DNA from: a bacterium
Lineage (GTDB): Bacteria; Patescibacteriota; Patescibacteriia; JACQRZ01
Assembly: GCA_030688365.1 (NCBI GenBank)
Contig: JAUYIE010000020.1
Location: 16,337-80,336 of the forward strand
Reading direction: 5' to 3'
Length of the DNA: 64,000 nucleotides
The notes under the pieces are model-generated. The model was not told the DNA's origin. It saw nothing but the letters and a program-made list of their open reading frames with translations, and did not search any database. Below, piece by piece: positions 2,513 through 64,000 of the stretch. A program made the position numbers and the translations under genes. The stretch's first letter is position 1. Every line of letters begins with the position of its first letter.

Positions 2513-2826
2513 TATTTTTTCTCCTTTTTCTTTTTACCAAATCCAAGAATTTTTTTAGCTTTCTTGACTGGTTTTGAAATCCAGAGGTAAATCCAGATCC
2601 CCAATCCTGTCATGATAGCTGTCCCCTCCAGCAGAGCTTGGTTTTGGGGTGTTATGACTGGTGGGTTAATCCAAAAGCACACTCCGATAAAGAGAATTAT
2701 GCTCCAAAGTGCTCTTTTTGGGGTCTGAGAACACCAACTGAAAATCCATTTTGTTAGTGTCCATATCTTTTTTGAAACAAACTTTCCTGCTGTTGCCAAA
2801 AATTCTAATATTTCTGCTTTATTCAT
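2512..2826 (-). CDS. Small membrane protein, hypothetical
   Basis: 104 aa with two or three TM helices and a Lys-rich tail. Confidence 0.4.
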   Translation of the reverse strand: MNKAEILEFLATAGKFVSKKIWTLTKWIFSWCSQTPKRALWSIILFIGVCFWINPPVITPQNQALLEGTAIMTGLGIWIYLWISKPVKKAKKILGFGKKKKEKK

Positions 2827-2920
2827 GATGTTTTCCTCTCAAGACATCAATATCCGTCTAGCTCTCTTGTAAAGAACCAACACTAAACATATACTATATT
2901 TATACACTTTTGTCAATACT

Positions 2921-3607: not shown

Positions 3608-4150
3608 AGGTAACGCTTCAGCGACATCGTCCCATATGTTAGTTAGCAAGGTTTGTACTTCTTGTTCTTCTTTGCTGAGTTCTGGTGTATTTTTATTTTC
3701 AGCTGATTTTGAAAAGGGATAGGTTCCATCGCCGAATGATCTAAGTGAAAAGGTTATCTCATCTTTTTTGCAAAAAGATTTTAACGGCGGTGACTACTTG
3801 GGGTTCAATCATTTCCCAATATATATTCTCTCCTAAAAGTGCTTTTTCTTCTTCTGTTTGTTCAAGACTATTTTTTTCGCGATTAGTCCATTGTTCTTGT
3901 CGTTGTTTGATAATCTTTTTTCGCAAGATTGCATATTGTGATTCCATTAGTATGTCTTTATAACATTCGGCATCATTCGCATATAGGGTTGTAAATTCCT
4001 CTGATTTGTTTTTTTTTAAGTTGTGTCATAAACGCATGAAGTTCATGCTCATCAGCATTTTCTAAAAGACGTACAATCTCAACGCCTTGGTTAAGGTTAT
4101 AGCCAGCTAGTATTTGTTCTGGCGTTGATTGTGTTGGTATCTCGTACATA
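3599..4150 (-). pseudogene. Fragmented reading frames downstream of tyrS (possible frameshifted hypothetical gene)
   Basis: Three contiguous minus-strand ORF fragments in different frames. An ATG at 4150 sits 14 nt after the tyrS stop. No fragment has a recognisable domain. Sequencing error cannot be excluded. Confidence 0.25.
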
Positions 4151-4163
4151 ATTTATTGTGTTA

Positions 4164-5360
4164 TTACCCCATCACTTTCACGAAATACCTCTTCCCTTTT
4201 TGGATGATTGTTCCTTTCGCAGGGATAGTGATTGAGTATTTAATATCATCTACAATTTCATCGTCTATTTTCACTGACTTTTGTTTGATCAGAGCGCGTG
4301 CGTCCGTTGTGCTCGTTGCGAGTTTTGTTTCTACTAGTGCATTTATAAGAGAAATGTTTTTCTTTGCGATTTTGAAGACAGGTATTTCATCCGGTCGTTT
4401 TTGTTGCTGAAATACTTGGATAAATTGTGCTTCTGCTTGTTCACTGTCTTTTTTGCTGTGATACATCGTGGTGATTTCTCGCGCAAGAAACATTTTTGCA
4501 TCACGTGGATTGAGTGTACCGGCTTTAATATCATGAGACATCTTGCTGATTTCTTTTTCCGGAATTTTTGTTGCAAGGTCAAAGTATTTCCACATGATCT
4601 TATCCGATATAGACATCACCTTGCCATACATATCGGCTGGTACATCAGTGATATTGATGGTGTTGCCCAAACTTTTTGACATTTTTTCATTACCATCAGT
4701 GCCGGGGATGTAAGGAAATAAAATCACATCTTGCTCTGGCATGCCGTGGCTGTGTTGTACTTCCCTGCCCATCAGTACATTAAATTTTTGATCCATGCCA
4801 CCGAGTTCAACATCCGCCTTGATCATCACCGAGTCATATCCTTGCATGAGCGGATACAATATTTCTTGTGCGTGGAGTGGTTGATTTTTTTTCAGGCGCT
4901 CACCAAAGGTTTCGTGTGCCAAAAGACGATTGAGTGTAGTGGTCGCCATGAGTTCAATCACGTCGCGTAAGGTAAATTTTGAAAACCATTCGGAATTACG
5001 GTGTACCTCTGTCTTCTTTTTATCAAGAATACTAAATACTTGCGTGAGATACATATCCGCATTGCGTTTTGTTTCTTCGTGGCTTATGAGCTTGCGTGCC
5101 TCCGATCGATCAGACGGATCACCAAGTTGTGCGGTGTAGTCGCCCAAGATAAGGACTGCGGTATGTCCCGCGTCTTGAAACTCACGAAGTTTATGAAGCG
5201 GTACAGTGTGGCCAATATGGATTTGTGGCTTGTTGGCATCAATACCGTACTTGATACGAAGTTTCTCGCCTTTTTTGAGACGCGCTTCAAGGTGTTTGCG
5301 ATCAATCACTTCTGCGACTCCGCGCGAAAGAAGAGAATGAATAGGATCGTTGTGTGTCAT
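4164..5360 (-). CDS. tyrS: Tyrosyl-tRNA synthetase
   Basis: HIGH motif (PQIHIGHT). KMSKS motif (KMSKSLGN). TyrRS-like signature (LILGDYTAQLGDPS). C-terminal S4-like domain. Confidence 0.88.
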   Translation of the reverse strand: MTHNDPIHSLLSRGVAEVIDRKHLEARLKKGEKLRIKYGIDANKPQIHIGHTVPLHKLREFQDAGHTAVLILGDYTAQLGDPSDRSEARKLISHEETKRNADMYLTQVFSILDKKKTEVHRNSEWFSKFTLRDVIELMATTTLNRLLAHETFGERLKKNQPLHAQEILYPLMQGYDSVMIKADVELGGMDQKFNVLMGREVQHSHGMPEQDVILFPYIPGTDGNEKMSKSLGNTINITDVPADMYGKVMSISDKIMWKYFDLATKIPEKEISKMSHDIKAGTLNPRDAKMFLAREITTMYHSKKDSEQAEAQFIQVFQQQKRPDEIPVFKIAKKNISLINALVETKLATSTTDARALIKQKSVKIDDEIVDDIKYSITIPAKGTIIQKGKRYFVKVMG

Positions 5361-5389: not shown

Positions 5390-8188
5390 TTATATCAGTC
5401 TTTTGCGTTGTTCTTGCATGCGTACGAGCTCATCTTGATAGTTGGCGACTTTTTGATGCAAATCTTGGACGATATGTTCCGGTGCTTTAGCCACAAACTC
5501 TTGGTTTGCGAGTTGTCCGTTTGTTTTTCCAATAAGAGATTCTATGTTGATGATTTCTTTATCAAGACGTGTCTTTTCTTCTTCAATCTTCATGGAAGTC
5601 AACGGGATATATATCTCAATGTCTTCTGTTGTAAGAAACAACGCGCTGTGCGGTTTTTTTCCGCTATCTTGTATAGTGAGTTGTCCGGCATGTGTAAGTC
5701 GTGTGATGGTATCTATGTGTGGTGTAAGAAATGCGCTTTTGTGCGGAGTGTAAAAAATCAGATTGATTTTTTCACCAGCGGATATGTGATTTTCTGATCG
5801 TGCATTACGTATGGTTTGGACGATTTTTTGTAATGATAAAAATTCTTGTTCTATTTTTTCGTCTATAGCTGACGAGTTTGATTGTGGCCATGCGCGTACC
5901 ATAAGCAGTGCAGGTCGGTCAGGGTGTGTGGGTGGAAATGAAGACAATGCAAGACGATATATCTCTTCTGTGACAAATGGCGCCATCGGATGCCATAAGA
6001 CTAGTAATACCTCAAGAATAGAAAGTAGCAATGCGCGCTTATCCCCCTCCACTTTACTTATCTCAACATACCAATCTGCAAAATCATCCCATGTGAATAC
6101 TCGTAGTAATTCTGCTGCATGAGAAAATTCATAGTGTTCAATAGATTTTGAAACCTCTGCGATAAGATTGTTGAGTCGGCTGATGATCCATCGGTCTGCA
6201 AGAGTATATTGCGGTTTTTTTGCTGTTTTTTCGGATTTTTCCTCGTTACCAGTGAAGGTCAAAATGTATCTACTAATATTCCATAGTTTGTTTACGAAAT
6301 TTCGATAGCTCTCGACCTTGTCTTGGGAAAGTCGCATACTATTTCCTGGTGTCACGCCGATTAACAAACTTAACCTCAATGCATCTGTACCATATTTTTC
6401 GATCATCTCAAGAGGATCAATAGCAGTTTCTTCATGAGACTTGCTCATCTTTCGTCCATTTTTATCCAAAACCATCCCATGAAGATAGATTGTTTTAAAT
6501 GGCGCTTCATCAAGCGCGTATTCCGTCATCAAGATCATTCTGTTTACCCAAAAGGTGAGGATATCCCACATGGTATCCAAAACAGTAGTAGGATGAAAAG
6601 TAGCCAAATCACCTTTTTTAATAATTTTTCCATCTTTTTCTTCTGCATTGTCTGGCCAGCCCATCGTACTAAACGTCCACATACCGGATGAAAACCAGGT
6701 ATCAAGTGTATCTTCTTCGGGTGTGGGTTTTGTGTTGCTACATTTTGGACACTGTAGCGGTTCTTCTACACTGACGATTGTCTCACCGCATCCTCCATTT
6801 TCCGGCAAACAATAGGATACAGGGATTTGATGGCCAAACCATATTTGTCGCGAAATACACCAATCACGAAGATTTTCCGTCCATTGAAAATATTGTTTTT
6901 CAAATCGTTGTGGGATTATTTGAATATCTTTTGAATGTATTGCACGAAGTCCCATCTCTTTAAGAGATTCATTATGGCGAGGGGTTTTTTTGTTAACATC
7001 AATAAACCATTGCAAGGAAGTAATTGGCTCAATGATAGTATCGCAACGATAACAGACGCCGACGCTATTTGAATATGTTTTCTTTTTTTCAAATAGACCT
7101 GCGGTCTGCAGTGCTGATATGACTGCTTCTCTCGCAGTGTAGCGATCCATACCTTCAAATTGCTGAATAGACGAAAGATCGTGGTTTGCCTTTCTTAAAG
7201 AATCAAAGTTGATTTTGGCTTCGTCATCAAGTATGCGATATGTCGGTAGGTTGTATTTTCTACCGATTTCAAAATCGTTCGGATCATGCGCGGGGGTGAT
7301 TTTGAGTGAACCGGTACCAAACTCCATATCCACATATTCATCTGCAATGACAGGAATATCACGATTGGCAAGCGGAAGTGTTACGACATTACCAATGTAC
7401 TGTTGATAGCGCGGGTCGTTTGGATTGACGGCGACCGCAACATCGCCAAGCATTGTTTCGGGGCGCGTTGTGGCTACGGTAAGAAATGCCTCACTATTTT
7501 TTATAGGATATTTGATGTAGTACAATATGCCTTCCTGGTCTTTATGATTTACCTCATCATCTGCCAAAGTGGACATACAACGAGGACACCAGTTGACAAT
7601 GCGTGTTCCACGATATATCAGATCGTCTTTGTACATACGAGCAAACATTGTGCGCACTGCCTTTGTCATGGCGGGTTCCAAGGTATACCGTTCTCTGCTC
7701 CAATCACAACTCGCGCCTAGAAGCCGTCCTTGATTACTGATATCACTACGCGATTGTTCTACATATTGAGATACGCGTTCAAGGAATTTTTCACGGCCGA
7801 GATCATGGCGAGAGATACCTTCCTTTGCAAGAAGTTTTTCTACTTTATTTGTGCTCGCGATGGATGCGTGGTCAGTACCGGGAAGCCATAGTGTCTTATC
7901 TCCTTTCATGCGGTGATAGCGAGTCATGAGATCTTCCAGTACATACCCTAGCGCATGACCGGTATGAAGTCTGCCTGTCGCGTTTGGCGGGGGCATGATG
8001 ATACAAAAAGGATTCTTGGCCTCCGGGTAGGCATCAGGATTAAAAAGACCGGAATCCAACCATGCCTTGTAGGTGCGATTTTCGACATTTTGAGGCTCGT
8101 AAGCTTTGGGAAGCTCGTTTGATGATTCCATAGCGAAAAAGATAAGAAATACTACACAAATAGTACCAAGCAATGGCTTTAGAGGCAA
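5390..8188 (-). CDS. valS: Valyl-tRNA synthetase
   Basis: 932 aa. PPPNATGRLHTGHAL HIGH region. KMSKS motif. Editing-domain-sized insert. Characteristic C-terminal coiled coil. Confidence 0.92.
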   Translation of the reverse strand: MPLKPLLGTICVVFLIFFAMESSNELPKAYEPQNVENRTYKAWLDSGLFNPDAYPEAKNPFCIIMPPPNATGRLHTGHALGYVLEDLMTRYHRMKGDKTLWLPGTDHASIASTNKVEKLLAKEGISRHDLGREKFLERVSQYVEQSRSDISNQGRLLGASCDWSRERYTLEPAMTKAVRTMFARMYKDDLIYRGTRIVNWCPRCMSTLADDEVNHKDQEGILYYIKYPIKNSEAFLTVATTRPETMLGDVAVAVNPNDPRYQQYIGNVVTLPLANRDIPVIADEYVDMEFGTGSLKITPAHDPNDFEIGRKYNLPTYRILDDEAKINFDSLRKANHDLSSIQQFEGMDRYTAREAVISALQTAGLFEKKKTYSNSVGVCYRCDTIIEPITSLQWFIDVNKKTPRHNESLKEMGLRAIHSKDIQIIPQRFEKQYFQWTENLRDWCISRQIWFGHQIPVSYCLPENGGCGETIVSVEEPLQCPKCSNTKPTPEEDTLDTWFSSGMWTFSTMGWPDNAEEKDGKIIKKGDLATFHPTTVLDTMWDILTFWVNRMILMTEYALDEAPFKTIYLHGMVLDKNGRKMSKSHEETAIDPLEMIEKYGTDALRLSLLIGVTPGNSMRLSQDKVESYRNFVNKLWNISRYILTFTGNEEKSEKTAKKPQYTLADRWIISRLNNLIAEVSKSIEHYEFSHAAELLRVFTWDDFADWYVEISKVEGDKRALLLSILEVLLVLWHPMAPFVTEEIYRLALSSFPPTHPDRPALLMVRAWPQSNSSAIDEKIEQEFLSLQKIVQTIRNARSENHISAGEKINLIFYTPHKSAFLTPHIDTITRLTHAGQLTIQDSGKKPHSALFLTTEDIEIYIPLTSMKIEEEKTRLDKEIINIESLIGKTNGQLANQEFVAKAPEHIVQDLHQKVANYQDELVRMQEQRKRLI

Positions 8189-9347: not shown

Positions 9348-9424
9348 GCGCGCATAGCTCAGCCGGTTAGAGCAGAGATCTTATAAGTCTCAGGTCGGTG
9401 GTTCGAGTCCACCTGCGCGCACCA
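9348..9424 (+). tRNA. tRNA-Ile, anticodon UAU
   Basis: Manual cloverleaf. Acceptor GCGCGCA/TGCGCGC. D-stem GCTC/GAGC. Anticodon stem GAGAT/GTCTC with loop CTTATAA. T-stem GGTGG/CCACC. Discriminator A and an encoded CCA. Confidence 0.8.
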
Positions 9425-9435
9425 GAGAAAGTCTT

Positions 9436-10299
9436 CTATATTATTGAGGGCTTTTTTGATTCAATCTCGTCCCAGATTCCTTTGAAAAGATGTCGCATAC
9501 TATCTGCAATGGTCTTGTCGTATAGTTCAATAAGATAGAAAGGGTGTTGGCGGGTATTTACAAATACTACATAATCACCATTAACCCATGTTGATGACTG
9601 AAAATTTGCACCTTTTTTCCAAAACAGCAAGTTTCTTCGGTTATAATCACGCGGTTTCATTATTTTTGTTTCAAATTCGGATTCATTTGTGAGCATATTT
9701 AGAGATACATTCTGCGAGAAAGGTTGTTTCCATTGCCAGTCAATCCATTTTACGTATTCTGTTGCAAAGGTATGATCTTGAAAACCCCAGAATATCCCAT
9801 CTCTTTCAAGTAAACTCTCACTCCATATTGGCAATCTTGAATATAAATAATTTTCTAGCTGTTCTTCGGAGATAAAAATGAGCTTTGGGATGTGATATGG
9901 TGCGTCCTTCGTTGCCTCCTGAAGTTGGGTAATTGCTTGTGTGATAAGGTTTTTTTGAATATCAAGTTTTTCTTCCTCTTGTTTAGTGAGGTTAGCAAGA
10001 TCTTGGAGCGGTAGTGCAACCAAATATGTCTTAGTACTCCCCAAATCCTCGGCAATTATGCCTTTTTTGATCAAATCAGAGGCGACGCTATATACCGTGG
10101 TACGGTTTATACCTGTTTCCTTGGCTATCTGAGTAGGTGTCGTCTTGCCAGCATGTAGTATGGCCAAATAAATTTTGGCCTCTTTATCACTAAAACCCAG
10201 TTGTTTGAGTATTTCTTGTGGCATATTTGAGTATATAATAGTATGTTGTTGGAATACTGTCAACAATATATCCTTTATGTCATAATATTTTTTATACAA
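9436..10299 (-). CDS. TrmB-like winged-HTH transcriptional regulator (paralog)
   Basis: N-terminal motif ILKQLGFSDKEAKIYLAILHAGKTTPTQIAKETGINRTTVYSVASDLIKKGII is a typical TrmB-family HTH. Confidence 0.55.
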   Translation of the reverse strand: MYKKYYDIKDILLTVFQQHTIIYSNMPQEILKQLGFSDKEAKIYLAILHAGKTTPTQIAKETGINRTTVYSVASDLIKKGIIAEDLGSTKTYLVALPLQDLANLTKQEEEKLDIQKNLITQAITQLQEATKDAPYHIPKLIFISEEQLENYLYSRLPIWSESLLERDGIFWGFQDHTFATEYVKWIDWQWKQPFSQNVSLNMLTNESEFETKIMKPRDYNRRNLLFWKKGANFQSSTWVNGDYVVFVNTRQHPFYLIELYDKTIADSMRHLFKGIWDEIESKKPSII

Positions 10300-10405
10300 A
10301 AAGGAAATATTGGTCTAAAAACTGTTGGAAGACTATTGACAATCTGTTGGATTCGTGGTATACTTCTCTTTGTTGAGTTAGTTGAAAACAAAAATAATAT
10401 TATAT

Positions 10406-10423
10406 ATGTTCCACGTGGAACAT
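10406..10423. promoter_or_regulatory. parS-like perfect palindrome, site 1 (ATGTTCCACGTGGAACAT)
   Basis: Read directly from the sequence. It lies 16 nt upstream of the zinc-ribbon gene start, overlapping the promoter/RBS region. Confidence 0.6.
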
Positions 10424-10439
10424 TAAAGGAGAAATCGAG

Positions 10440-10673
10440 ATGAGTAATAGTAATCAAGTACAGTATTGTAAGGCGTGCTTGCGCACGCGGGATACTAATT
10501 TCTTTAGCATCGGTTTGTTCATCATATGTGATGAATGTGTTAATCGGTATTATAAAAGAAAAACTTGTCCTAAATGTCTTTGTACTAGCTTTAAGCTAAG
10601 AGCTTTTTGGCACGTGGAGTGTGCCAATTGTGGCGAGGTATTTTTACAGTATAAAAATAAAAACGAAAAATGA
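10440..10673 (+). CDS. Cys4 double zinc-ribbon small protein (77 aa)
   Basis: Four CxxC pairs (CKAC, CDEC, CPKC, CANC). RBS AAAGGAG upstream. Confidence 0.5.
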   Translation: MSNSNQVQYCKACLRTRDTNFFSIGLFIICDECVNRYYKRKTCPKCLCTSFKLRAFWHVECANCGEVFLQYKNKNEK

Positions 10674-10749
10674 TTCAGGGTAAACGAAGGTATCTTATTA
10701 CAAGATACCTTCTAATTTTCCTTATAATTCCGAGATCAGACCTCTCAAC

Positions 10750-10767
10750 ATGTTCCACGTGGAACAT
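10750..10767. promoter_or_regulatory. parS-like palindrome, site 2
   Basis: ATGTTCCACGTGGAACAT. First of three phased copies in the convergent intergenic region. Confidence 0.6.
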
Positions 10768-10792
10768 TTTGCATACACCCTAACCCCAAATA

Positions 10793-10810
10793 ATGTTCCA
10801 CGTGGAACAT
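10793..10810. promoter_or_regulatory. parS-like palindrome, site 3
   Basis: AATGTTCCACGTGGAACATT, a 20-bp perfect palindrome. It is 43 bp from site 2. Confidence 0.6.
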
Positions 10811-10837
10811 TTTGGTAACATATCGCGTGACTCGGAA

Positions 10838-10855
10838 ATGTTCCACGTGGAACAT
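10838..10855. promoter_or_regulatory. parS-like palindrome, site 4
   Basis: AATGTTCCACGTGGAACATT. It is 45 bp from site 3. Confidence 0.6.
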
Positions 10856-10912
10856 TTTGAGGATATAAAGTACAAAAAACCAAATAAAAATAAGGATTCG
10901 TGTTTAGAATCC

Positions 10913-11403
10913 TCACTCTCTTTGTGTTATGTGAGTAGATAAATCTATCTCTGTGGTTGTTTTAGTATTCATTGGCGCTAAGTTCAACCATTTGAGCACC
11001 GCAAGTGATCGCGGATTCATTTGGTAAGCCTTTTCTGCGCAGTCTGTGGCACGAACAACCATACCAAGCTCCCAATAAATGTTTGCACAAACAAGAAATG
11101 CATCAGCGTTATCCGGATAGTTTTTAATGTATTCCGTCATCCATGATAGGGCATCATTGAAAGATTCTATCTGTTCATAGGATATAGCTAACCTATAAAG
11201 AGCGATTTCGTGTGTCGGATTACAGTCTAGTATTTGTTTATAACACTTTATTGCTTCTTGAAATCCTTTTATAAACTCTGTGGATCCTTTTTTGTATTCA
11301 TAAGCCTTTAAAGTAGCTTGATATGCCACATTCACGAGTTCTTCCTCATCTACATAAATTGTAAAGAACCATTCCTTGATACTTTCGTACATTTTGTACC
11401 TCC
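10913..11403 (-). CDS. TPR-repeat protein
   Basis: TPR-like helical repeats. The start was re-set to the ATG at 11403 (MYESIKEW), preceded by AGGAGG. The longer tabulated N-terminus only translates the palindromes (NVPRGT). Confidence 0.55.
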
Positions 11404-46215: not shown

Positions 46216-46290
46216 TGGAGCGGGTAAGGGGAATCGGACCCCTATCTCGACCTTGGCAAGGTCATATAATAACCATTATACGATACCCGC
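46216..46290 (-). tRNA. tRNA-Gly, anticodon GCC
   Basis: Reverse-complement fold. Acceptor GCGGGTA/TACCCGC. Anticodon stem TGACC/GGTCG with loop TTGCCAA. T-stem AGGGG/CCCCT. Encoded CCA. The D-arm is AT-rich. Confidence 0.78.
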
Positions 46291-55066: not shown

Positions 55067-55702
55067 ATGAAAAGTAAGAAAAATCTCTTGGAACAATTAA
55101 AAACACTTCCGCACTTCAATAAAGATGTGATTTTTCAGCTGGGTACACATCTTGGACTTGAAGATTCCACTATTGATACCTATATCAGCCGATTTTTAAA
55201 AAATAGAGAGATCTATCGGCTCAAAAACGGACTGTATATATCCGCTGATTTTTTTGAAAAGAACAGGAACGATATTTCGTATTCGTTTTATGTGGCCAAT
55301 ATCTTGCGTACGCCATCATATGTCAGTTCGTGGACGGCGTTGCAGTATTTCAATCTCACGACAGAGGCGATACATGGGATTACTTGCGTGACGCCAAAAG
55401 TAACACGAGACTATCAGACACAGGTGGAAAATTTCAGTTATCAGTCTATAGACAAAAAACTGTTTTCCGGATTTTCGTTGGGAACGGGGACATTTGATTT
55501 TTTTATTGCCTCTCCCGCAAAAGCTTTGTTTGACTTGCTGTATTTCAAGACGTATCAGTTTCGCGGTGTGACATTAAAACAGATACCGACATTGATTGAA
55601 GAATTACGCATTGACTTTGATGAGATGGACAAGAAAGAACAGAAAATTTTTTATAAAATGATTAAAAAGAGGATTTTGAAGTGGACGAAAAAGAGAAGGT
55701 AA
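55067..55702 (+). CDS. AbiEi-antitoxin-like wHTH protein (orphan)
   Basis: The N-terminus (LLEQLKTLPHFNKDVIFQLG...IYRLKNGLYI) resembles the AbiEi N-terminal domain (I.R..RG.Y). No co-directional AbiEii partner. Confidence 0.4.
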   Translation: MKSKKNLLEQLKTLPHFNKDVIFQLGTHLGLEDSTIDTYISRFLKNREIYRLKNGLYISADFFEKNRNDISYSFYVANILRTPSYVSSWTALQYFNLTTEAIHGITCVTPKVTRDYQTQVENFSYQSIDKKLFSGFSLGTGTFDFFIASPAKALFDLLYFKTYQFRGVTLKQIPTLIEELRIDFDEMDKKEQKIFYKMIKKRILKWTKKRR

Positions 55703-55770
55703 AAGCAATATGTCTGCGTTGTTATCTTGCGAGTTGGATGATTTGCTGAAGTAGCTCTATATATCCCTCC

Positions 55771-56772
55771 TCAAATCTCCCTCTCAAACTCTTTGAATCT
55801 TGATCCTGTGTATGTTTTCGCGAGTTTACGATATTTTTCGTACAGTGTGTTGTCTGAAATCGTACTTGGATCAAGCGTTGGAGCATTTTTGAAATAAAAA
55901 GGATCATCCCTATCTTCCATCCAGTATATGATTTGTGCTACCAAATCATCTTTGTGGTGCGCCAGAATACCTTCTTTTGTCTCATCTGTGGTCACAATGC
56001 CCAGCTCTAGTAGTTTGTTATAAAATCTTTCAGCCAGTTCATCTCCCATTTCATATGATTTGTCTACGGCAATAGCAAGATCAAATAGCCGGACATGATC
56101 AAATTCCCATTGCCAATCTTTGATGCCATCAATTGTTCCATTGCCATACATCGCTTCAAACTCCACTTGCAATCGCAACGCCTTCATGACTAATTTTGAT
56201 CGTAGACCTTGCTCTCCCTTTGAATAACTATACCACCAGTTGCCTTTGTACTCTGTGGGGCGGATAATTTTATTTTTTAGATCGTTTATGGCCTCTGGGG
56301 TTGCGATGATTTCTTCGTCTAGAATCAATACTTCATTTAACACAAAGTCGCGAGATAAAAAATATTCTGATAATGATTCTTTGCGAATACCGTGGCCTTG
56401 CGCGCTGTCATTGGACATATATCGTTGCTCAAGCATGTCTATCACAGCGGGATTTGGGTGAGCGTTTATGTCTGTAATGACAACAATATCAACATCACGC
56501 GGTTTTAAAACTTTGTTACCCAACAGCCGAAGTGCAACATTTCGCGCGACACCTCCCGCGATACCATAGCCCTTGGGTAGCTCTATTGGTAATTTTTCTT
56601 CAAGGGGTATATGTACGAGGGTACGCATGTTTTCTGTGCCATGTTCTTTGTCGTCAATGGGGATGCGCTGTATGGTATATACCAAGTCATGTTTATCCAA
56701 TATTTCTTTAACCCCATCGCTTAATTCAGGGGAAACAAATGTTTCGGTTGGGATTGTTTCAAATTTTTCCAT
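55771..56772 (-). CDS. Nucleotidyltransferase-fold protein related to class II tRNA nucleotidyltransferase / poly(A) polymerase head domain (divergent)
   Basis: YGIAGGVARNVALRLLGNKVLKPRDVDIVV parallels the GGxVRDxLLG...PKDxDxxT motif of class II CCA enzymes, with Asn in place of Asp. It is co-directional and adjacent to cca. Confidence 0.5.
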   Translation of the reverse strand: MEKFETIPTETFVSPELSDGVKEILDKHDLVYTIQRIPIDDKEHGTENMRTLVHIPLEEKLPIELPKGYGIAGGVARNVALRLLGNKVLKPRDVDIVVITDINAHPNPAVIDMLEQRYMSNDSAQGHGIRKESLSEYFLSRDFVLNEVLILDEEIIATPEAINDLKNKIIRPTEYKGNWWYSYSKGEQGLRSKLVMKALRLQVEFEAMYGNGTIDGIKDWQWEFDHVRLFDLAIAVDKSYEMGDELAERFYNKLLELGIVTTDETKEGILAHHKDDLVAQIIYWMEDRDDPFYFKNAPTLDPSTISDNTLYEKYRKLAKTYTGSRFKEFEREI

Positions 56773-56800
56773 AGCGATACATCAGTAAATAGTGTTTTTT

Positions 56801-58033
56801 CTACTGCAACGATTGCACATACTTCATCGCTTCCTCTTTGGTAGAAAGTGAGCGCGAAAGTGCGAGGGTTTCTACCTGTTCCAAGATTTCCTTGAACTTC
56901 GGTCCCGGTTTTATGCCAAGACTATGGAGATCGGTGCCGGTGATTAAGGGGAGTTTTGGCAAGGGATTTGTCTGGAGATCTTCTATGATTTTTTGAAAAC
57001 CTATTGTCTCCGGCGAGCCAGTACCAAATCTCACTTTCGCAAGTGCGAGGATTGCTTGTTGATTATTTTTTACTGCAAGTCGGCGCAAGGCAATCTCGTC
57101 CAGTGAAGACAACGCCTCAATATTTTTTACAATATCGTTAATATCAGTAATCTCTTTGTTGGAAAGTTTTATTGTTTTGCCGAGTGTCGTCACCTCTTGG
57201 TCAGCCATGATAATCGCCCACGTAGTCATGGCTGGCGCATCGGACGTGGATTCCAGTCGGGTGAGTTGTTCCTTCATTTCCGGGTTGATATCTAACCATG
57301 GCAATAAAAGTGGTAACAGGCCACATTCTTTCATAAGTTGAAGACCATGAAGGGGCATGGAAGTCGCAAGCATTTTTCTGATTTCATTGGTTGAACGTTC
57401 TTGTTTCAGGGTTAGTGCGTTATCGTGGTGCGTTTTTATTGCGTCATAGAGCGACGGATCAATATCAAAATCAAACTGGCAGGCAAATCGTATCGCACGA
57501 ATCAGCCATAATGCATCTCCCGCTTTTGTCGGGTCATTCGTAGCACGAATAATGCCCGCTTTGATATCATCCATTCCGCCCACGAGATCAATGACCTCTT
57601 TGGTAAGCGGATCAATCAAGAGCGCGTTCATGGTGAAATCGCGCCGTGCTACATCTTCCTCTTTGGTGGATGAAAATGCTCCGCCATCCCCCCGATATGT
57701 AGAGACCTCGTAGCAGTCCCCATTCAATAAAACTCTGACCATGCCGTATTCAGCGGCTTGCATCACTGTTCTGGGAAACAGTTTGGCGACTTGTTCTGGT
57801 AGCGCGTTTGTCGTCATATCAAAATCTTTTGGTTCCACGCCAAGAACCATGTCGCGGACGCAACCGCCAGCGAGATATGCCTCATACCCTGAATCGCGGA
57901 GATTCTGCGCCACATTCCGCGCGCCTTCAAAAAATTTATTTTCCGGCAGTGTGAGTGCCTCTTTATTAGCTATTTGTTCGTTGCTTGCGTCCCCAAGACG
58001 AAATTGAGAGCGTTCCATGTGTTGTTCAGGCAT
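56801..58033 (-). CDS. cca: tRNA nucleotidyltransferase (CCA-adding enzyme / class II PolyA_pol family)
   Basis: LAGGCVRDMVLGVEPKDFDMTT head-domain motif, RFACQFDF, and a 410-aa body. Confidence 0.8.
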   Translation of the reverse strand: MPEQHMERSQFRLGDASNEQIANKEALTLPENKFFEGARNVAQNLRDSGYEAYLAGGCVRDMVLGVEPKDFDMTTNALPEQVAKLFPRTVMQAAEYGMVRVLLNGDCYEVSTYRGDGGAFSSTKEEDVARRDFTMNALLIDPLTKEVIDLVGGMDDIKAGIIRATNDPTKAGDALWLIRAIRFACQFDFDIDPSLYDAIKTHHDNALTLKQERSTNEIRKMLATSMPLHGLQLMKECGLLPLLLPWLDINPEMKEQLTRLESTSDAPAMTTWAIIMADQEVTTLGKTIKLSNKEITDINDIVKNIEALSSLDEIALRRLAVKNNQQAILALAKVRFGTGSPETIGFQKIIEDLQTNPLPKLPLITGTDLHSLGIKPGPKFKEILEQVETLALSRSLSTKEEAMKYVQSLQ

Positions 58034-58226
58034 AATAAAGACGGTGAAGTTATAATACTGTTTAGTATGTCATGTATTGTGAAAAAGGAAAATGAAGAAA
58101 AGAAAAAAGCCCGCTGACATTATTTGTCGCGGGGCATTTCTATAATTACGATGATAGAGTGTACACTACTTGCCTGGTATACACTCAAGCGTCGCAACGA
58201 TAGGGGAGAATATGTTTTATACTTCC

Positions 58227-58310
58227 TGTTTCATCCTTTCGGAATCATCAGCACGGATACACATCCGTGAACAGGTGGGGGAGTTTCGATTATGAAACTC
58301 CCCAAACTTG
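58227..58310 (+). ncRNA. Repeated structured element, copy 1 (conserved leader plus two hairpins)
   Basis: TGTTTCATCCTTTCGGAATCATCAG, then hairpin CACGGA-TACACA-TCCGTG, then hairpin GGGGAGTTTC-GATTAT-GAAACTCCCC. Strand is uncertain. Confidence 0.3.
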
Positions 58311-58542
58311 TTTATTCTTTGGACGTATTCCTTTCGATCCAAAGCTTTTTTTGTTCCTCCTTTCTTGCTTGTTCGAGGTTTAGAATGTCCTCTTTTAAAT
58401 TCGGAAGTGGTTTTGTTTACAGTGCACTATGAATAAACTGGTGGTTGTATATATTGTAGTGGAATAGACTTTTCATTGTGGTATAGACACCCCAAATGGA
58501 ATGGTGATATACTTTGAGTGATTTACTATTATCTATATATAT

Positions 58543-58899
58543 ATGGAAAAAGGAGGAGGATCGTTTGAAAATACGCCGGAACAGCCAAAAACAGAATTTG
58601 AAAAGGCTAAAGAAGAGGTTTCCGCAGTAGCGACAGACTGGGAATATATAAGCGAAATAGAAAAGATGTCCAGACAAGAATTATCACGAGGTGAATCACC
58701 AAAAAAAGTAGCCGACGATATTTATAGAATTTGCAGACAAGAATCTATAGAAATAGAGAAAGAGATTCATCTGCTAGAAACGAAACTTGAGGATAAGCAA
58801 TTTGACGGAGTCCGCGAACCTCTTGTTGAAGTCCTTGCTAAGATACAAAATGAGATAAATAAACTTGAAAGAGATGAACGAAATGGATCTAATCCGTAA
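58543..58899 (+). CDS. Hypothetical coiled-coil protein (118 aa)
   Basis: ORF followed by a strong bidirectional terminator. Confidence 0.4.
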   Translation: MEKGGGSFENTPEQPKTEFEKAKEEVSAVATDWEYISEIEKMSRQELSRGESPKKVADDIYRICRQESIEIEKEIHLLETKLEDKQFDGVREPLVEVLAKIQNEINKLERDERNGSNP

Positions 58900-58931
58900 T
58901 TGATTTTAAAGATTCAATAATTTTTATATAA

Positions 58932-58960
58932 AAATGGTCCCTTTGGGGGCCATTTATGTT
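58932..58960. terminator. Bidirectional rho-independent terminator
   Basis: AATGGTCCC-TTTG-GGGGCCATTT hairpin flanked by an A-run and T-runs, between convergent genes. Confidence 0.55.
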
Positions 58961-58971
58961 GGGTTGTTTTT

Positions 58972-59436
58972 CTAATAACTTTTTCCGGATTGTAGTACTA
59001 TTTGTCTGATAAACAACATGCCGGTGGCAGTATCTCCGGCGTATAGACGTGCTTCAATACTGTTTAGCAGACTTCTGATGTCAAGTCCGTACCAGTATTG
59101 GGCTTTGTCGAACACATCTTTGCCAGAACAATTGCATTGTTCTTGAAATTGGAACAACTTTGCGGAAATTTTGAACTTTGAATGGTATTCGTGCATCAAA
59201 CTCGCTATGTCTTTTCCCGCTATCCGATGGTTAGTGAGTACTGACAAAATCTGATCGGCTTCATTACTGGTGTATGTTGAGGGTTGTGTGTCAATAGGAA
59301 TCCCCTCAATTACCAGGCCATCTTGTGAAGACATAATAGTTATCTTCCCAAAAGACGTGAATACCGTTGCTTTTTTCTTCTCATAATCTATGCACGGCGC
59401 TCTTTCCTTTGCGCCATCTTGTTGTAATGAACACAT
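58972..59436 (-). CDS. Hypothetical protein (154 aa)
   Basis: ORF with no recognisable motif. Confidence 0.4.
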   Translation of the reverse strand: MCSLQQDGAKERAPCIDYEKKKATVFTSFGKITIMSSQDGLVIEGIPIDTQPSTYTSNEADQILSVLTNHRIAGKDIASLMHEYHSKFKISAKLFQFQEQCNCSGKDVFDKAQYWYGLDIRSLLNSIEARLYAGDTATGMLFIRQIVLQSGKSY

Positions 59437-59574
59437 TTTTTTTCTCCTTTTTTAATAACAAAGGTTTACATTAACCTTTATGGCAATCACTTTGGCATAT
59501 TTGACCGGTTTTGTCAAGAATATCTGGGTAAAAGAAAAAAGCTCAAACAGTGCAATTGACTGTTCGAGCTTAAA

Positions 59575-59955
59575 TTAATCGGTGTTCTGCCTCTGTGCAT
59601 CCGTGCCAAGGTCTTCAAGTTCCAGAACCATACGCTTCACTCTCTTGAAACCAAGAAAGCGGTACATACGGTCTTTTACTCTCCAGTCGCAGAGCTTTGG
59701 GTCGGTGACCGTCTCTGCTTCTGAATACAGTGGCCTTAGACCAAGATCGCATAAGCGGGCGAGTACGCTATACGGTGCGACGACAATGCAGTCGTTGTAA
59801 CCGCCTTCGCGTATCCGCCGTACGATTGTCTCCGCGCTATTCCAGACACGATGGTCTTCGAAGACTTTGACATCTTCTCCGAACATTCTTTTCAACGCGC
59901 CCATTTGGACGCCATTCATGCTGTGCTGTGATACCCAGCATATTCTTTTTGGCAT
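59575..59955 (-). CDS. Hypothetical protein (126 aa)
   Basis: The start was set to MPKRICWV, preceded by a strong RBS (AAAGGAGGTATT-ATG). GC content is markedly higher than in the core genome. Confidence 0.5.
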   Translation of the reverse strand: MPKRICWVSQHSMNGVQMGALKRMFGEDVKVFEDHRVWNSAETIVRRIREGGYNDCIVVAPYSVLARLCDLGLRPLYSEAETVTDPKLCDWRVKDRMYRFLGFKRVKRMVLELEDLGTDAQRQNTD

Positions 59956-60055
59956 AATACCTCCTTTACTCTGTGCCACAGAGTATTTATTGCTACAGTC
60001 GAGCATGCATCACTTGCCTGACACATACTCAAATCTAGCAACAAATGTGGAATCT

Positions 60056-60134
60056 TATTTCGTCCTTTCGGACTCATCAGTGGAAGTACACACTTCCAGA
60101 TAAGAGAGATCATTTTAATTGATCTCAATTTTTT
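60056..60134 (+). ncRNA. Repeated structured element, copy 2
   Basis: TATTTCGTCCTTTCGGACTCATCAG, then hairpin TGGAAG-TACACA-CTTCCA, then hairpin GAGATCA-TTTTAAT-TGATCTC, then a T-run. Confidence 0.3.
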
Positions 60135-60217
60135 TGCCCTGTAAAAAAGAACTATGATTTGGCAAGCGTGATACCTACCGATGGGAGCCGTTTTGATTTT
60201 GGCTCCGCGTGTAAAAA

Positions 60218-60721
60218 CTAATGGGATCCGTTCCATTTTTTAAAACCTGCAGATTCGGGTATTCTTCGTTCGAAGACGTTTTCTGCAAAATTTTCTATCA
60301 GTTTTTGGACACTGGCAATCTCTACTTCTGTAAAAGTTGGCTTAGTGCCTTCTTTCTCGAAGTCGAGAGTAAATCCACGAGAGGCATTCCAGCCACCCCA
60401 AGAAGGACTTCGGGGAAAATCGTTTTCTGGAGTGCCCCAAAATTCCCGGTCATTAGTGTCGACTAAAGGGCCGACGTCCTCATGCGAAAAACTCCATCCA
60501 TCAGCCTGCATGAGAGCTGATAAACTGGCAATCAATGTGACAATATCATCATATTTTTTGGGTCGTGTGAATCCAAGAGAAATGGTGACAGTCTGTTGAT
60601 TGGCCATGCACTCATCTTCGCCCCAATTTGGTTCAGATGAATCACCCCAAAAGGTAATTCGTGTTGAGTTTTGGGGATAAGACTCTGTTTCCGAAAAATC
60701 AATTCTCAATGGTAGGTACAT
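60218..60721 (-). CDS. Hypothetical protein (167 aa), higher-GC island
   Basis: ORF with Trp-rich segments (SPSWGGWNASRGF). No motif. Confidence 0.45.
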   Translation of the reverse strand: MYLPLRIDFSETESYPQNSTRITFWGDSSEPNWGEDECMANQQTVTISLGFTRPKKYDDIVTLIASLSALMQADGWSFSHEDVGPLVDTNDREFWGTPENDFPRSPSWGGWNASRGFTLDFEKEGTKPTFTEVEIASVQKLIENFAENVFERRIPESAGFKKWNGSH

Positions 60722-61029
60722 TATTGTACCTCCTTTGAGGAAGAAAATAATTCAGAAATTTTCTCAACCAGCTGGGCCTGAGTAATTTTTTCTGCGTTCT
60801 TTTTCGTAGACCCGCAAAGTAAATACTCATTCCCATTCTGAAATGCGTCCTGCATTTCAGCCTCCCCAACACTCCTCCTTGTGGGGTGGTCTCCTGCATG
60901 AAAAAATCTTTCCCAGAACCCGCTCATGCCGCGGATGCTGGAAATCTGGAACGTACGACCATCGGGCGTCGTCCATTCCAAATTCTTCTGCGTGGCCACT
61001 AGGTAGGCCAGCACCATGTTTGCATTCAT
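60721..61029 (-). CDS. Hypothetical protein (102 aa), higher-GC island
   Basis: ORF ATGA-coupled to the downstream gene. RBS GGAGGACAAAAAATG. Confidence 0.45.
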   Translation of the reverse strand: MNANMVLAYLVATQKNLEWTTPDGRTFQISSIRGMSGFWERFFHAGDHPTRRSVGEAEMQDAFQNGNEYLLCGSTKKNAEKITQAQLVEKISELFSSSKEVQ

Positions 61030-62365
61030 TTTTTGTCCTCCTACGACAAAAGATAAAATATTACTTTTAAATTTACTCTTGATTTAAGATAATTCTGTTT
61101 GGGTTGTAACACCCCGACACAATGACCTTAAGAAAGAGGGGAAACATTTGTTTCCCATTCTAACCCTTTTAATGTACGATGATGAATCGCGAATCACCTA
61201 TTACCTCCTTTCGCGTGCTATAATATTTTTTAATGAGAGAGTCGTCAGTCATCATTATTGGCTCATCGTTGATTGAATCAACTAGGCTTATAGTGATCGA
61301 CTTCTCTCCCAGCGATTGTTTGGTTCGCCAGCACCTTCGATATTCTTATATCTATCCATGTGTTGTTGTGTAAACAACTCATTTCAAAATACTCTCCAAA
61401 AATCTCGAACACCTTCATGTTTACGGGAAGCTTGAGAGACTTTCTGTAAACAATCCTCATCTCGCAGTAGGGTGGTTAAGGACACCGTCCTTTCTTTATA
61501 TCTTTTGTGATTTCAAAATCTCTAACCCTCGATTTTGTTCTATTTGGGTCCTCTGGTAATGAGATCCAGATGGAGTACTACTACTGAGCACTTTTTAACA
61601 AGGTTACCTTCCCTTGAACATACTACATACCAACTTCGACGGTTATATTCATGTTAAATATATGACCAATCGCCACACTTATATCGTCTTACGCAGGTAA
61701 GCGGGAAAACGCTGTGTAAAACAGAACTTTTAATTCATTTGAGATACTGTTCTCAAACATTCTTGCATATGTGTCCGTAATTGATCTTGTTGTAACAGTG
61801 CTGTGCTTGTGGCCGCTCTGTCGCTGTCAATTGTGGCATTTCAAGAATTTAGAATCATCGTTTCTACCCTAGTGTGATCCCTGTCAGATCACGCTGTGTT
61901 GGTTTACCCCCGAATCGCTAAGATCCTGCAGGTTTCTTTTCAACCCGGCCCGCGAAGGGTAAGGTCAGCCAACGTTCCGGTGTCAGAACCATCTTCACGG
62001 GATGAGCGGTCAACTCTCGGGTGACGGGCGTTCATGCTTTGCCACTGCTTTTGGGTGAGACAATTTCATCGTTTACACATGACGATTATTTTTGTGTTCA
62101 CTAAAACTTTCTGTACAGTATCATGAAGTAAGTTGTTTTTTGTTAAGTATACGCGATATCAGAAATACTATCTCGCAGACTCTAACCTCTCAGGGTGGCT
62201 TAGTGTAATAACACCCACTAACTGGTTGCCCTGTTTGAGATCGTTCGCTCCGATCTCGTTTTTTTGGCGTCTTTCCATGTAGCAGCTTTCGGTTGTGCCG
62301 GAACCGGGCTGTCGCGCGCATGCGTCATATGTACCTCCTTTCGCATGAGCAATCTTTTCCCGCTA

Positions 62366-62680
62366 CTAATTGTTGCTGAATGTGATATCGGGAGAAGTAC
62401 GCGGGATGTACTTCCAGATAATTTCTTCTGGTTCATGCTTGAGCAATCCCCAGACCATATCGGCGATTTCGGCGTCAGTCCACTGGAGGACTTCTGCCAA
62501 AATTTCCCCTTTTGTTTCCGGTCTTCCAATACCGACAAATTCTCCTACGCCATCTTTGAGAATGGCAGTAAGAATATTTGCCAGCGTTTGGTGTTCTCCT
62601 GCCAACAATAGGTCGTCAAGACAAATCATTGGTTCGGGGATCAGGCCAGAGGAGATGAACTTTCTATTGATATACCACAT
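62366..62680 (-). CDS. Hypothetical protein (104 aa), translationally coupled to the vWA gene
   Basis: Its start lies 2 nt after the stop of the upstream vWA gene. It overlaps the alternative ORF 62218..62538, which is judged spurious. Confidence 0.4.
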   Translation of the reverse strand: MWYINRKFISSGLIPEPMICLDDLLLAGEHQTLANILTAILKDGVGEFVGIGRPETKGEILAEVLQWTDAEIADMVWGLLKHEPEEIIWKYIPRTSPDITFSNN

Positions 62681-62681
62681 A

Positions 62682-63980
62682 TCAATTCACCCCCTTTCCA
62701 AATTTCATGTTATCGTTTACGAGATGGTGGCTCGTAGCGATATTTTTTAGTGCTTCGTTCTCTGAAGCGACACTGAAAACATGAAGCTTGATATCGCCTA
62801 GCGGTTCATGGGTTCCCAATGAGTCATCCCCATCAGTAACCATGATGATATCGCAGCGATGGAATCTAGCCTTATCAGCGTTAATATCCTTAACTGCTTG
62901 TGATATCGCTGCACTAAAATTTGTACTACCACCACTATATGTTCCTTTGTTTTTTATCATGTCGAGCAGCTCACGCCCTTGCTGCTCATTTCTTGCTTCC
63001 TTCAGGTCGTGGGGCGATCCGTCAAAAAGTCGTAAAAAGAGTTCTGCTTCTCCTCTGATTACTGCCTTCACACGGTTCAGCAAGATTCCTCCTGCTTTCA
63101 CGACCCTTTTACCGTCTCCCATAGAACCTGAACAGTCAACGAGCAGGTAAATTAATTGTTTTTGCTCGTCAACCTTTACATACTCACGTACAGGTAGACG
63201 TTTTTCGACAGCTCTTTGCCAAAAAATTTCATCAGGCAAACCATGTGCAACACGGGCGACTTTTGGTAATTCAGAGAAATCTCTGATACCTCTAGTGCGC
63301 ACGAATGCCGTGGGTTCCAGCGAAGATTTTGTACTTCTTTTTTTGCTGGTTTTAAGTTCAACCAGATCATCAAGAAGATGCGAAAGTCTCACTAATTCCC
63401 ATTCGGTTGACTGGCCGATTTTTTCAGCAACCTCAACGACTGACAACGGGCTATTCCCGTTCGGTGCTTTTGTGTCCAAAAGCTCCTGGTCGATGTCATC
63501 AAGGTTCTGGGCTGCCTCTAGGCAATCAGCGGTTTGATTGCTGAGTTCCTCTCCGTCTCTTTCGAGAAAGATAGGTAGCGCATCAGCTTCTTCACCGCTA
63601 CCACCACTTTCAGATTTTGACTTTTCAGCCATCATTTTCAGTAAGGCGGCTGCCTTTTCAAGCGCCGTCCCTGGCAAGTTATCCAAGGTTTTCTTTTCAG
63701 CAAGTGCCTTGAGAAACCCCCGGACGTTTTGGTGATATTTAAGTAATTTATCTCTGTCCAGAAGTGGCTGCTCCTGTATGAGATCTTCTACTTGTTTTTC
63801 CACCTGTGCCTCATCCATGACCGTTTGTTCTCCGCCGCGAGCGACGTTGAGCAGATCCTGGAAGAAGGCGGGTGCTACAGCCGGCACCTTGGCTTTCCTG
63901 CAAAACATTTCAATCTCTGGTGGGTGTGCAGGTGTAAACCCATCAGGGAGGTGAGTACGCATTAACGGTTTCATTGGCAC
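62682..63980 (-). CDS. von Willebrand factor type A (vWA) domain protein
   Basis: MIDAS motif DCSGSMGDG, then ...TNFSAAI...IIMVTDGDD. The N-terminal region is Glu-rich. Confidence 0.7.
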   Translation of the reverse strand: MPMKPLMRTHLPDGFTPAHPPEIEMFCRKAKVPAVAPAFFQDLLNVARGGEQTVMDEAQVEKQVEDLIQEQPLLDRDKLLKYHQNVRGFLKALAEKKTLDNLPGTALEKAAALLKMMAEKSKSESGGSGEEADALPIFLERDGEELSNQTADCLEAAQNLDDIDQELLDTKAPNGNSPLSVVEVAEKIGQSTEWELVRLSHLLDDLVELKTSKKRSTKSSLEPTAFVRTRGIRDFSELPKVARVAHGLPDEIFWQRAVEKRLPVREYVKVDEQKQLIYLLVDCSGSMGDGKRVVKAGGILLNRVKAVIRGEAELFLRLFDGSPHDLKEARNEQQGRELLDMIKNKGTYSGGSTNFSAAISQAVKDINADKARFHRCDIIMVTDGDDSLGTHEPLGDIKLHVFSVASENEALKNIATSHHLVNDNMKFGKGVN

Positions 63981-64000
63981 ACCTCCTAATTTGCCAATGA

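Follow-up and report, generated by a model that had tools for sequence, protein, structure and literature searches.

We analysed a 64,000-nucleotide (nt) stretch of DNA from a member of the Patescibacteriota (contig JAUYIE010000020.1, positions 16,337 to 80,336; hereafter the window, numbered from its first letter) and focused on the minus-strand gene cluster at its end, which encodes a von Willebrand factor A (vWA) protein and surrounds a long stretch without open reading frames (ORFs). The window is chromosomal DNA of about 40% GC with housekeeping genes for ArgRS, ValRS, NusA, FtsH, a type IV pilus ATPase, RpiB and Rpe. The interval from 59.5 to 64 kb is the downstream two-thirds of a cluster that starts past the end of the window with a gene for a MoxR-type AAA+ ATPase. 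In the direction of transcription, the order is MoxR, vWA, p104, a non-coding element of about 0.9 kb, p102, p167, a predicted hammerhead ribozyme (HH1), p126, a terminator, p154, a second predicted hammerhead (HH2) and another terminator. The protein-coding genes are as follows.

63986–64000, minus strand: last 15 nt of the MoxR-type AAA+ gene (388 amino acids), which continues on contig L001
62682–63974, minus strand: vWA protein, 430 amino acids (ORF; Pfam VWA_2 and VWA)
62366–62680, minus strand: p104, 104 amino acids (ORF; translationally coupled to vWA)
60721–61029, minus strand: p102, small hypothetical protein, 102 amino acids (ORF)
60218–60721, minus strand: p167, small hypothetical protein, 167 amino acids (ORF; start overlaps the p102 stop)
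59575–59955, minus strand: p126, 126 amino acids (ORF)
58972–59436, minus strand: p154, hypothetical protein, 154 amino acids (ORF; follows p126 in the two-gene block between HH1 and HH2)

Re-calling the ORFs returned the minus-strand genes of the initial annotation, that is, three small hypothetical proteins, the vWA protein and its 104-residue partner. The other details given for these genes could be read from the letters as well: the ribosome-binding site (RBS) of the 59575–59955 gene, AAAGGAGGT, lies 5 nt ahead of its ATG at 59955, and the stop of vWA and the start of p104 read TGAtATG, as expected for coupled genes. New beyond that annotation are the two predicted hammerheads, and what had been listed as a long non-coding stretch is a conserved element.

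Predicted hammerhead ribozymes on the operon strand

Both hammerheads and the small structures next to them lie on the coding strand of the cluster.

60053–60105, minus strand: HH1, type III, 53 nt; core CUGAUGAG...CGAAA intact; predicted cleavage 3' of C60099
58224–58276, minus strand: HH2, type III, 53 nt; U10.1/U11.1 mismatch by the core; predicted cleavage 3' of U58270
60001–60030, minus strand: hairpin with loop CAGGCAAGU, part of a module of about 120 nt common to HH1 and HH2
58157–58186, minus strand: second hairpin with loop CAGGCAAGU, in the HH2 module
58096–58141, minus strand: terminator-like hairpin followed by a T run (sequence reading and a ctRNA-like match)

A permissive Rfam scan matched the hammerhead family RF00008 at 60058–60100 (HH1; 32.1 bits, E 5e-4) and at 58223–58277 (HH2; 31.0 bits, E 1e-3). 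The core C3-U-G-A-N-G-A9 ... G12-A-A14 and the NUH triplet are present in both copies, with HH1 reading AUC...CUGAUGA...GAAA and HH2 reading GUU...CUGAUGA...GAAA, the predicted cut following the triplet. All positions in the three stems of HH1 (7, 4 and 6 bp) are paired, and stem III is open. Loop 1 (UGUGUA) and stem II (UCC-GAAA-GGA) are common to the two copies, and every sequence difference in stems I and III is compensated. A hairpin precedes each copy. The pair is spaced 1.83 kb apart and brackets p126 and p154, and HH2 is followed only by a hairpin and a terminator, in a segment that holds no ORF. A third match to CAGGCAAGT, at 13425, has no hammerhead nearby and was judged to be due to chance.

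A descriptor scan and a covariance model found hammerheads of the same architecture in five other MoxR–vWA loci, all of them intergenic and on the operon strand and none on the opposite strand. The model, built from six copies, scored HH1 at 75.5 bits and HH2 at 74.7 bits, and it detected the hammerheads of loci L002 and L011, which lay outside the model, with E values of 3e-7 and 5e-8. Scored against RF00008, the hammerhead of L007 reached 50.6 bits, over the gathering threshold, and that of L013 reached 44.5 bits. The position of the ribozyme varies: in L002 it precedes the p126 homologue, and in L013 it separates MoxR from vWA. Across six relatives, 13 of the 17 hammerhead pairs have changed on both sides, in a set that the descriptor had pre-selected for pairing.

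The same 53-nt variant is abundant in viral DNA. An exact-pattern scan of IMG/VR returned at least 120 matches, and every one of the 60 viral loci tested carries full-length 53-nt matches (99 in total, 25–75 bits), many of them in same-strand arrays with copies 1–3 kb apart and up to five per locus. None of the island proteins is encoded on these 60 loci. Arrays of three to five copies within a few kilobases were seen on the IMG/VR contigs L064, L074, L094, L048 and L089. Taken together, we regard HH1 and HH2, from their sequence and predicted pairing, as members of a type III hammerhead family that is abundant in phages, both encoded on the operon strand.

The core and the predicted three-stem architecture with an open stem III, in which HH2 has its unpaired U-U next to the core, resemble those of the type III hammerheads of phages and prophages (RF00008; Perreault et al. 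2011, PMC3088659), and so does an intergenic, coding-strand location with two copies around a short gene block. Prophage hammerheads are found on either side of single genes or of short blocks of genes, an arrangement thought to serve the processing of long transcripts (PMC3088659). Unlike those ribozymes, the window copies sit in modules of about 120 nt with a second, CAGGCAAGU-looped hairpin, and their host is a chromosome of the candidate phyla radiation (CPR) type, beside a MoxR–vWA operon, with no recognisable prophage.

A conserved non-coding element downstream of p104

The stretch between p104 and p102 (61030–62365) contains TAA, TAG and TGA in each of the six frames, so it is truly ORF-free, as had been annotated, and an alternative genetic code is ruled out. 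Comparison with six-frame fragments of all related loci and with the ORFs of L002 yielded noise only, and a pseudogene remnant was rejected. Three features fall within this stretch.

61210–62090, minus strand: candidate large structured non-coding RNA, about 880 nt, 790–985 nt in relatives (nhmmer envelope)
62218–62328, minus strand: putative mini-ORF of 36 codons with a strong RBS, just past the p104 stop (sequence reading)
61139–61156, minus strand: terminator-like hairpin (GGGAAACAAATGTTTCCC, then a T-rich tail) that separates the RNA element from p102 (consensus match only)

Copies of the element were found with nhmmer downstream of vWA–p104/p101 in two other lineages (L002 at 10193–10984 and L161, an ENA scaffold, at 2428–3410; the window copy runs from 62090 to 61210 on the minus strand). 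All three copies are free of ORFs. Their nucleotide identity is about 54%, with vWA proteins that are 64–67% identical in the same lineages, and their mismatches have no 3-nt periodicity (0.48, 0.46 and 0.45). The window and L002 copies align in short, highly conserved blocks, such as GAGGGAAGGTAACCTYGTWAAAAAGTGC, between variable stretches that resemble compensated stems. Wider searches, with nhmmer in 161 loci and with a covariance model of the 3' domain in 41 loci, returned these three copies only, and exact-pattern scans of metagenome and viral contigs (subsets of JGI and IMG/VR) found none. Rfam 15 gave no match on 61030–62365 at E up to 10 and none on the L002 copy at E up to 0.5, and only chance matches of 15 bits on the L161 copy at E up to 10; GOLLD, ROOL, OLE and HEARO are thereby excluded, as are RNase P, tmRNA and the group I and II introns.

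The mini-ORF has counterparts of eight codons, MTHARDGP-stop in L002 (about 10000–10040) and MAYARDGP-stop in L160 (about 4140–4180). Its proline-stop ending could mark a stalling leader peptide, or its conservation could reflect RNA structure.

Covariation points to a structured RNA

A consensus fold of the three copies (RNAalifold) contains 202 pairs, of which 81%, 92% and 92% are canonical in the individual copies; the L161 copy, which keeps 92%, is the richest in GC. The number of pairs with compensatory changes on both sides is 75, compared with 45.7±4.7 in 32 column shuffles (z 6.3; shuffle maximum 55), and the same test on coding controls gave z 0.9 for vWA and -0.7 for MoxR. The 3' domain folds into four helices with 40 pairs, in which 92% of cells are paired, versus 43–50% when the alignment is slid, and 21 of the 40 pairs have changed on both sides. 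Two hairpins of 13–14 bp stay paired through near-complete sequence turnover, and a long-range helix (167–173/1022–1028) is compensated in four of its seven pairs. When the minimum-free-energy structure of one copy is transferred onto another, 42–49% of informative pairs are canonical in the element, versus 31–35% in coding sequence.

Several other measures were tried and rejected. Against column shuffles, the alifold energy of the element has z-scores of -15 (operon strand) and -10 (opposite strand), and the vWA and MoxR coding alignments score -11.8 and -8.2; the L161 element alone scores -9.5, but the L161 vWA gene scores -15.8. The number of strong helices does not discriminate (vWA coding z 4.1), and a sliding 150-nt stability scan found nothing in the ORF-free stretch. 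Strong mRNA folding was itself seen in these lineages. The GC-rich vWA coding sequence at L161 600–1595 folds at -532 versus -407 kcal/mol, 15.8 standard deviations (sd) better than dinucleotide shuffles, and the MoxR and vWA coding alignments have alifold z-scores of -8 to -12.

These data suggest that the 0.9-kb stretch is most likely a functional non-coding element, probably a large structured RNA that is co-transcribed with the operon genes. We consider it likely that the element is a conserved structured RNA, and less so that it forms one single large fold; certainty about its structure is out of reach because only three sequences are known. It may represent a new class of large structured RNA.

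Like GOLLD, ROOL and OLE (PMC12286853), the element is several hundred nucleotides long and non-coding, it has numerous helices as well as unpaired blocks that are conserved, and it lies in a region with phage-like features. Unlike those RNAs, whose Rfam models it does not match at E up to 10, it lies inside a protein operon and not beside tRNAs, and it comes from three metagenomic sequences only.

The MoxR and vWA proteins

The initial annotation had predicted that a MoxR/AAA+ partner of the vWA protein would lie beyond 64000. The prediction proved correct, because a contig with 99.99% identity to window positions 55211–64000 (8,790 nt), the Logan contig L001, runs 8.7 kb beyond 64000 and carries a MoxR gene directly upstream of vWA. 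This gene (L001 7529–8695) encodes the 388-residue ATPase and ends 11 nt ahead of the vWA start. Its product matches the Pfam families PF20030 bpMoxR (49.1 bits, cut-off 27) and AAA_5 PF07728 (32.2 bits, cut-off 22), with an AAA_lid_2 match slightly below its cut-off (22.0 bits), and its nearest solved relative is RavA (E 5.6e-9).

The vWA protein contains the noted MIDAS (metal-ion-dependent adhesion site) motif DCSGSMGDG and scores over the cut-off for both VWA_2 (29.2 bits, cut-off 27) and VWA (27.8 bits, cut-off 23.8). Its AlphaFold2 (AF2) model (mean confidence, pLDDT, 89) consists of an all-helical N-terminal half and a C-terminal vWA domain. The vWA domain is the sole part with a match in the PDB, where Foldseek gives a probability of 1.0 to many vWA domains; a fold search of the PDB with the N-terminal half returned no analogue. 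Full-length fold matches have low TM scores, the best being those to phage VWFA and CobT-like proteins. The family is small (23 clusters, at most 67% identity), with relatives in both CPR metagenome-assembled genomes (MAGs) and IMG/VR contigs, one of them next to MoxR in a phage-like array that also encodes DnaB and RNR. The MAG titles of relatives of the target genes name mostly Saccharibacteria, Nomurabacteria, Uhrbacteria, Paceibacterota, Moraniibacteriota, Doudnabacteria and Wolfebacteria, so that the DNA is likely to come from the CPR (Patescibacteria).

A MoxR/AAA_5 ATPase directly ahead of a protein whose N-terminal half is helical and whose C-terminal vWA domain contains a MIDAS motif is also the arrangement of RavA–ViaA in E. 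coli and of phage CobS/CobT-like pairs. By analogy with these pairs, we infer that MoxR and vWA may form an ATP-driven, MIDAS-mediated chaperone for remodelling or assembly. The window pair differs from RavA–ViaA in that it has no LARA domain, scores 19 bits against the ViaA/CoxE model PF05762 (cut-off 26.4) and reaches only 29.1 bits on the NCBIfam RavA equivalog (cut-off 681). The cobaltochelatase models likewise score far under their cut-offs. A third comparison is with the MoxR–vWA–beta-propeller ternary conflict systems (Kaur et al. 2020, PMC7159879), because the best Pfam match of the window ATPase, PF20030, is their bpMoxR. Unlike those systems, the extended locus (L033, 18.7 kb) lacks a beta-propeller gene among its called genes, its vWA protein is fused to neither an effector nor a VMAP domain, and PADLOC gave no meaningful match.

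A conserved neighbourhood and a compositionally distinct block

All-against-all clustering of the ORFs of 32 loci placed MoxR–vWA beside the same TrmB regulator and the same large protein (C4) in about 12 loci, mostly with CPR titles. The recurrent order is C4 > TrmB < ... C3 > MoxR > vWA, in which TrmB is on the opposite strand, C3 is a protein of about 160 residues with no Pfam match, and the large protein has 588–996 residues and, in some loci, a C-terminal GNAT domain. The loci with this neighbourhood are L005, L006, L008–L012, L014, L015, L020, L021 and L033. These extra conserved partners go beyond what accompanies RavA–ViaA and CobS–CobT. Further upstream of MoxR, L001 carries a 144-residue gene, an ORF-free 1.6 kb, AbiEi/AbiEii, TrmB, an 892-residue protein, transketolase and an MNT/HEPN pair. 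The second ORF-free region (L001 5168–6782, between AbiEi and the 144-residue gene) has no similarity to related loci apart from a weak 44-residue minus-strand match to L022.

Base composition was compared in 137 overlapping 4.5-kb segments (72.7 kb in all; mean GC 0.403, sd 0.0147). The initial annotation had described a compositionally distinct block in which GC rises from 40% to about 50% in coding stretches. The block is indeed distinct: 59.5–64 kb ranks second of 137 in GC, and 59.5–65 kb is the top outlier in tetranucleotide distance (ranks 1–3 of 137, z 2.6–3.4). The rise is from 0.400 (1–59499) to 0.444 (59500–64000), and a value near 50% is found only in p126 (0.493), with 0.463 in vWA and 0.37–0.47 in the ORF-free stretch. 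The high-GC block spans about 59.4–65.2 kb and takes in the MoxR gene. GC at third codon positions (GC3), relative to 60 other ORFs, is raised by 3.6 sd in both p126 and p102, and by 1.3 sd in vWA and 1.2 sd in MoxR, where the GC excess is mostly at codon position 1, not 3. In four relatives, the cluster is always richer in GC than its flanks (0.63/0.54, 0.57/0.47, 0.49/0.45 and 0.57/0.54), so the bias may be intrinsic to the cluster and not a mark of recent transfer.

Directly downstream of HH2 are two minus-strand genes, for the CCA-adding enzyme (56801–58033) and, following it, for a 333-residue protein with only a faint nucleotidyltransferase match (55771–56772). The CCA-adding enzyme gene, a neighbour outside the claimed island (GC 0.467, GC3 +2.2 sd), is also found near the cluster in L005 and L012. 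The three tRNA genes of the window are scattered singly; one of them, tRNA-Ile with anticodon UAU, is at 9348–9424 on the plus strand.

Small proteins and small RNA features

The five small proteins have no match in Pfam, PHROGs, PADLOC or NCBIfam. p126 has homologues in 54 clusters at 61–86% identity, including a Woesebacteria MAG (P0024–P0077), and its conservation exceeds that of its neighbours (compare vWA). Its AF2 model (pLDDT 94) is a small alpha/beta domain for which a fold search of the PDB found nothing significant (best E 0.04). p126 also occurs without MoxR–vWA, beside TrmB and a large methyltransferase. A homologue search with p104 returned p104 itself only; by position, 101-residue homologues were found in L160 and L161 and a remnant in L002. 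A p102 homologue lies directly upstream of MoxR in L002 and L009. No homologue of p167 was found in the fetched loci, and p154 has neither a family match nor homologues there. Two further RNA features lie between p126 and p154.

59539–59571, minus strand: intrinsic-terminator-like hairpin with a 13-bp stem and a T run, directly past the p126 stop
59434–59518, minus strand: leader resembling the freshwater-2 RNA motif, extending to the p154 start codon (sub-threshold match to RF02980)

The match to RF02980 is full-length, including the RBS and AUG (32.3 bits, gathering threshold 49.9, E 0.04), and the p154 leader is possibly a distant member of the freshwater-2 family. Upstream of hammerhead-less p126 homologues, L034 (about 7640–7800) and L038 (about 7700–7870) share a motif with a terminator-like hairpin (...ATGGYGAGGCRAGGAGTGGCTGTACTCCCTGG...CCTAAGCAAA...), which has no Rfam match.

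Weighing the interpretations

On balance, we think it probable that the locus is a MoxR–vWA operon with embedded RNA elements, namely the hammerheads and the large non-coding RNA candidate. A number of observations weigh against this reading. HH1 and HH2 both score under the RF00008 gathering threshold of 48.5 bits, and the core-adjacent mismatch of HH2 makes it suspect by published criteria (PMC3088659); prophage hammerheads differ from the window copies in both respects. No hammerhead, and no Rfam family, was found upstream of the p126 homologues in L034–L039. For the large element, a single alignment served both to derive the structure and to count the pairs, the excess over slid controls in the transfer test is modest, and the thermodynamic z-scores had to be discarded because coding controls score as low. 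The window copy is the weakest of the only three that are known (80.6% of pairs canonical, single-sequence z -2.1). The link between the RNA and the MoxR–vWA proteins is one of adjacency only.

It is very unlikely that the hammerhead matches are inactive relics or chance resemblances with no part in the operon. The low RF00008 scores and the U-U at 10.1/11.1 of HH2 would fit such an origin, as would the bias of the descriptor-selected set in the covariation count, but the core of HH1 is complete, the two copies keep their stems by compensatory changes around identical loops, homologous hammerheads in five other related loci all lie on the operon strand, and one relative (L007) exceeds the gathering score. 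The full-length matches in all 60 viral loci, 99 in total, also argue against chance. Even less credible is a reading of the ORF-free 1.3 kb as the decayed remains of coding sequence or as neutral, functionless spacer DNA. The stretch is AT-richer than its neighbours and holds short RBS-preceded ORFs, the window copy keeps the fewest consensus pairs, and the operon has another ORF-free region, of 1.6 kb, on its upstream side; against this, the stretch is alignable in blocks and ORF-free in three lineages whose proteins are 64–67% identical, related loci have no protein-level similarity to it, it lacks codon periodicity, and its compensatory changes outnumber those in shuffles, which is not so in the coding controls. 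A better-placed alternative, though still unlikely, is that the conserved region is a string of small cis elements, such as a leader peptide or attenuator, terminators, translational operators and protein-binding DNA sites. A conserved mini-ORF with an RBS lies on its 5' side and an RBS directly after it, terminator-like hairpins are present, and the best-supported helices are local hairpins, with fewer compensatory changes in long-range helices. Conservation is nevertheless continuous over about 880 nt, including unpaired blocks, the long-range helix described above is compensated in four of seven pairs, and the length and number of helices are far above those of known bacterial leaders.

The initial annotation had read the whole block as horizontally acquired, that is, as a prophage remnant, an integrated element or a nucleoside-triphosphate-dependent conflict island. 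We consider recent acquisition of this kind somewhat unlikely. In its favour are the GC and tetranucleotide outliers with the high GC3 of p126 and p102 (+3.6 sd), the presence of the MoxR–vWA family on viral contigs and the abundance of the hammerhead family in phages, the AbiE and HEPN/MNT toxin–antitoxin genes that flank the cluster, and a gene order unlike that of the closest relative, L002. A search of the called genes of L033 (18.7 kb) found no integrase, adjacent tRNA or phage structural gene; the tRNA nearest to the block is at 46216, and its borders have no convincing att-like direct repeats and no flanking repeat family. PADLOC 2.0 returned only a 15.7-bit IetA fragment for MoxR and nothing for nine other proteins, and the L033 gene calls contain no beta-propeller, effector or VMAP partner. 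The cluster GC exceeds that of the flanks in four of four relatives, and the excess in vWA and MoxR is chiefly at codon position 1. Conserved synteny across all relatives had been named as an argument against a foreign block. The MoxR–vWA–TrmB–C4 part is conserved in about 12, mostly CPR-titled, loci, and the genes downstream of vWA vary by lineage and are rearranged relative to L002, so this expectation is borne out in part. Recent horizontal acquisition is possible and unproven.

Discussion

If the locus is an operon with embedded RNA elements, HH1 and HH2 would cut its transcript in cis, as expected from the chemistry of the family. Cleavage at HH1 would yield a p126 mRNA that begins with a 5'-OH and a structured leader; the RNA upstream of the cut would end in a hairpin plus a 2',3'-cyclic phosphate. 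Cleavage at HH2 would release a short RNA without an ORF. In this way, the ribozymes could uncouple the stability and expression of the transcript segments. The 0.9-kb element is predicted to be transcribed with the operon, to fold into a large multi-helix RNA and to act as RNA, and it may, speculatively, work together with the neighbouring proteins.

A bolder version, which we regard as a long shot, is that the element is a new large-RNA class and the working partner or client of MoxR–vWA and p104, forming a ribonucleoprotein (RNP) that is assembled or remodelled by the AAA+/MIDAS machine. The hammerheads, the CCA-adding enzyme and the nucleotidyltransferase would then be parts of one RNA-centred module. 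Such an RNP would resemble Rea1/midasin on pre-ribosomes, or the vWA-containing Ro60 with Y RNA.

To our knowledge, large multi-helix non-coding RNAs are rare in bacteria, comprising, beyond rRNA, RNase P, tmRNA and self-splicing introns, a handful such as OLE, GOLLD, ROOL and HEARO. Each of these classes has brought surprises to light, the latest being RNA-only cages (PMC12286853). Should the RNA claim fail, what is left is an ordinary MoxR–vWA operon with ribozyme punctuation. If it is true, the element would add a further large-RNA class, situated in a MoxR–vWA operon of small-genome bacteria, with defined protein neighbours and open to testing. The locus also extends clustered phage-type hammerheads, as predicted here, to CPR-like chromosomes, and it defines a conserved, uncharacterised five-gene neighbourhood across the CPR that consists of a large GNAT-containing protein, TrmB, a protein of about 160 residues, MoxR and vWA.

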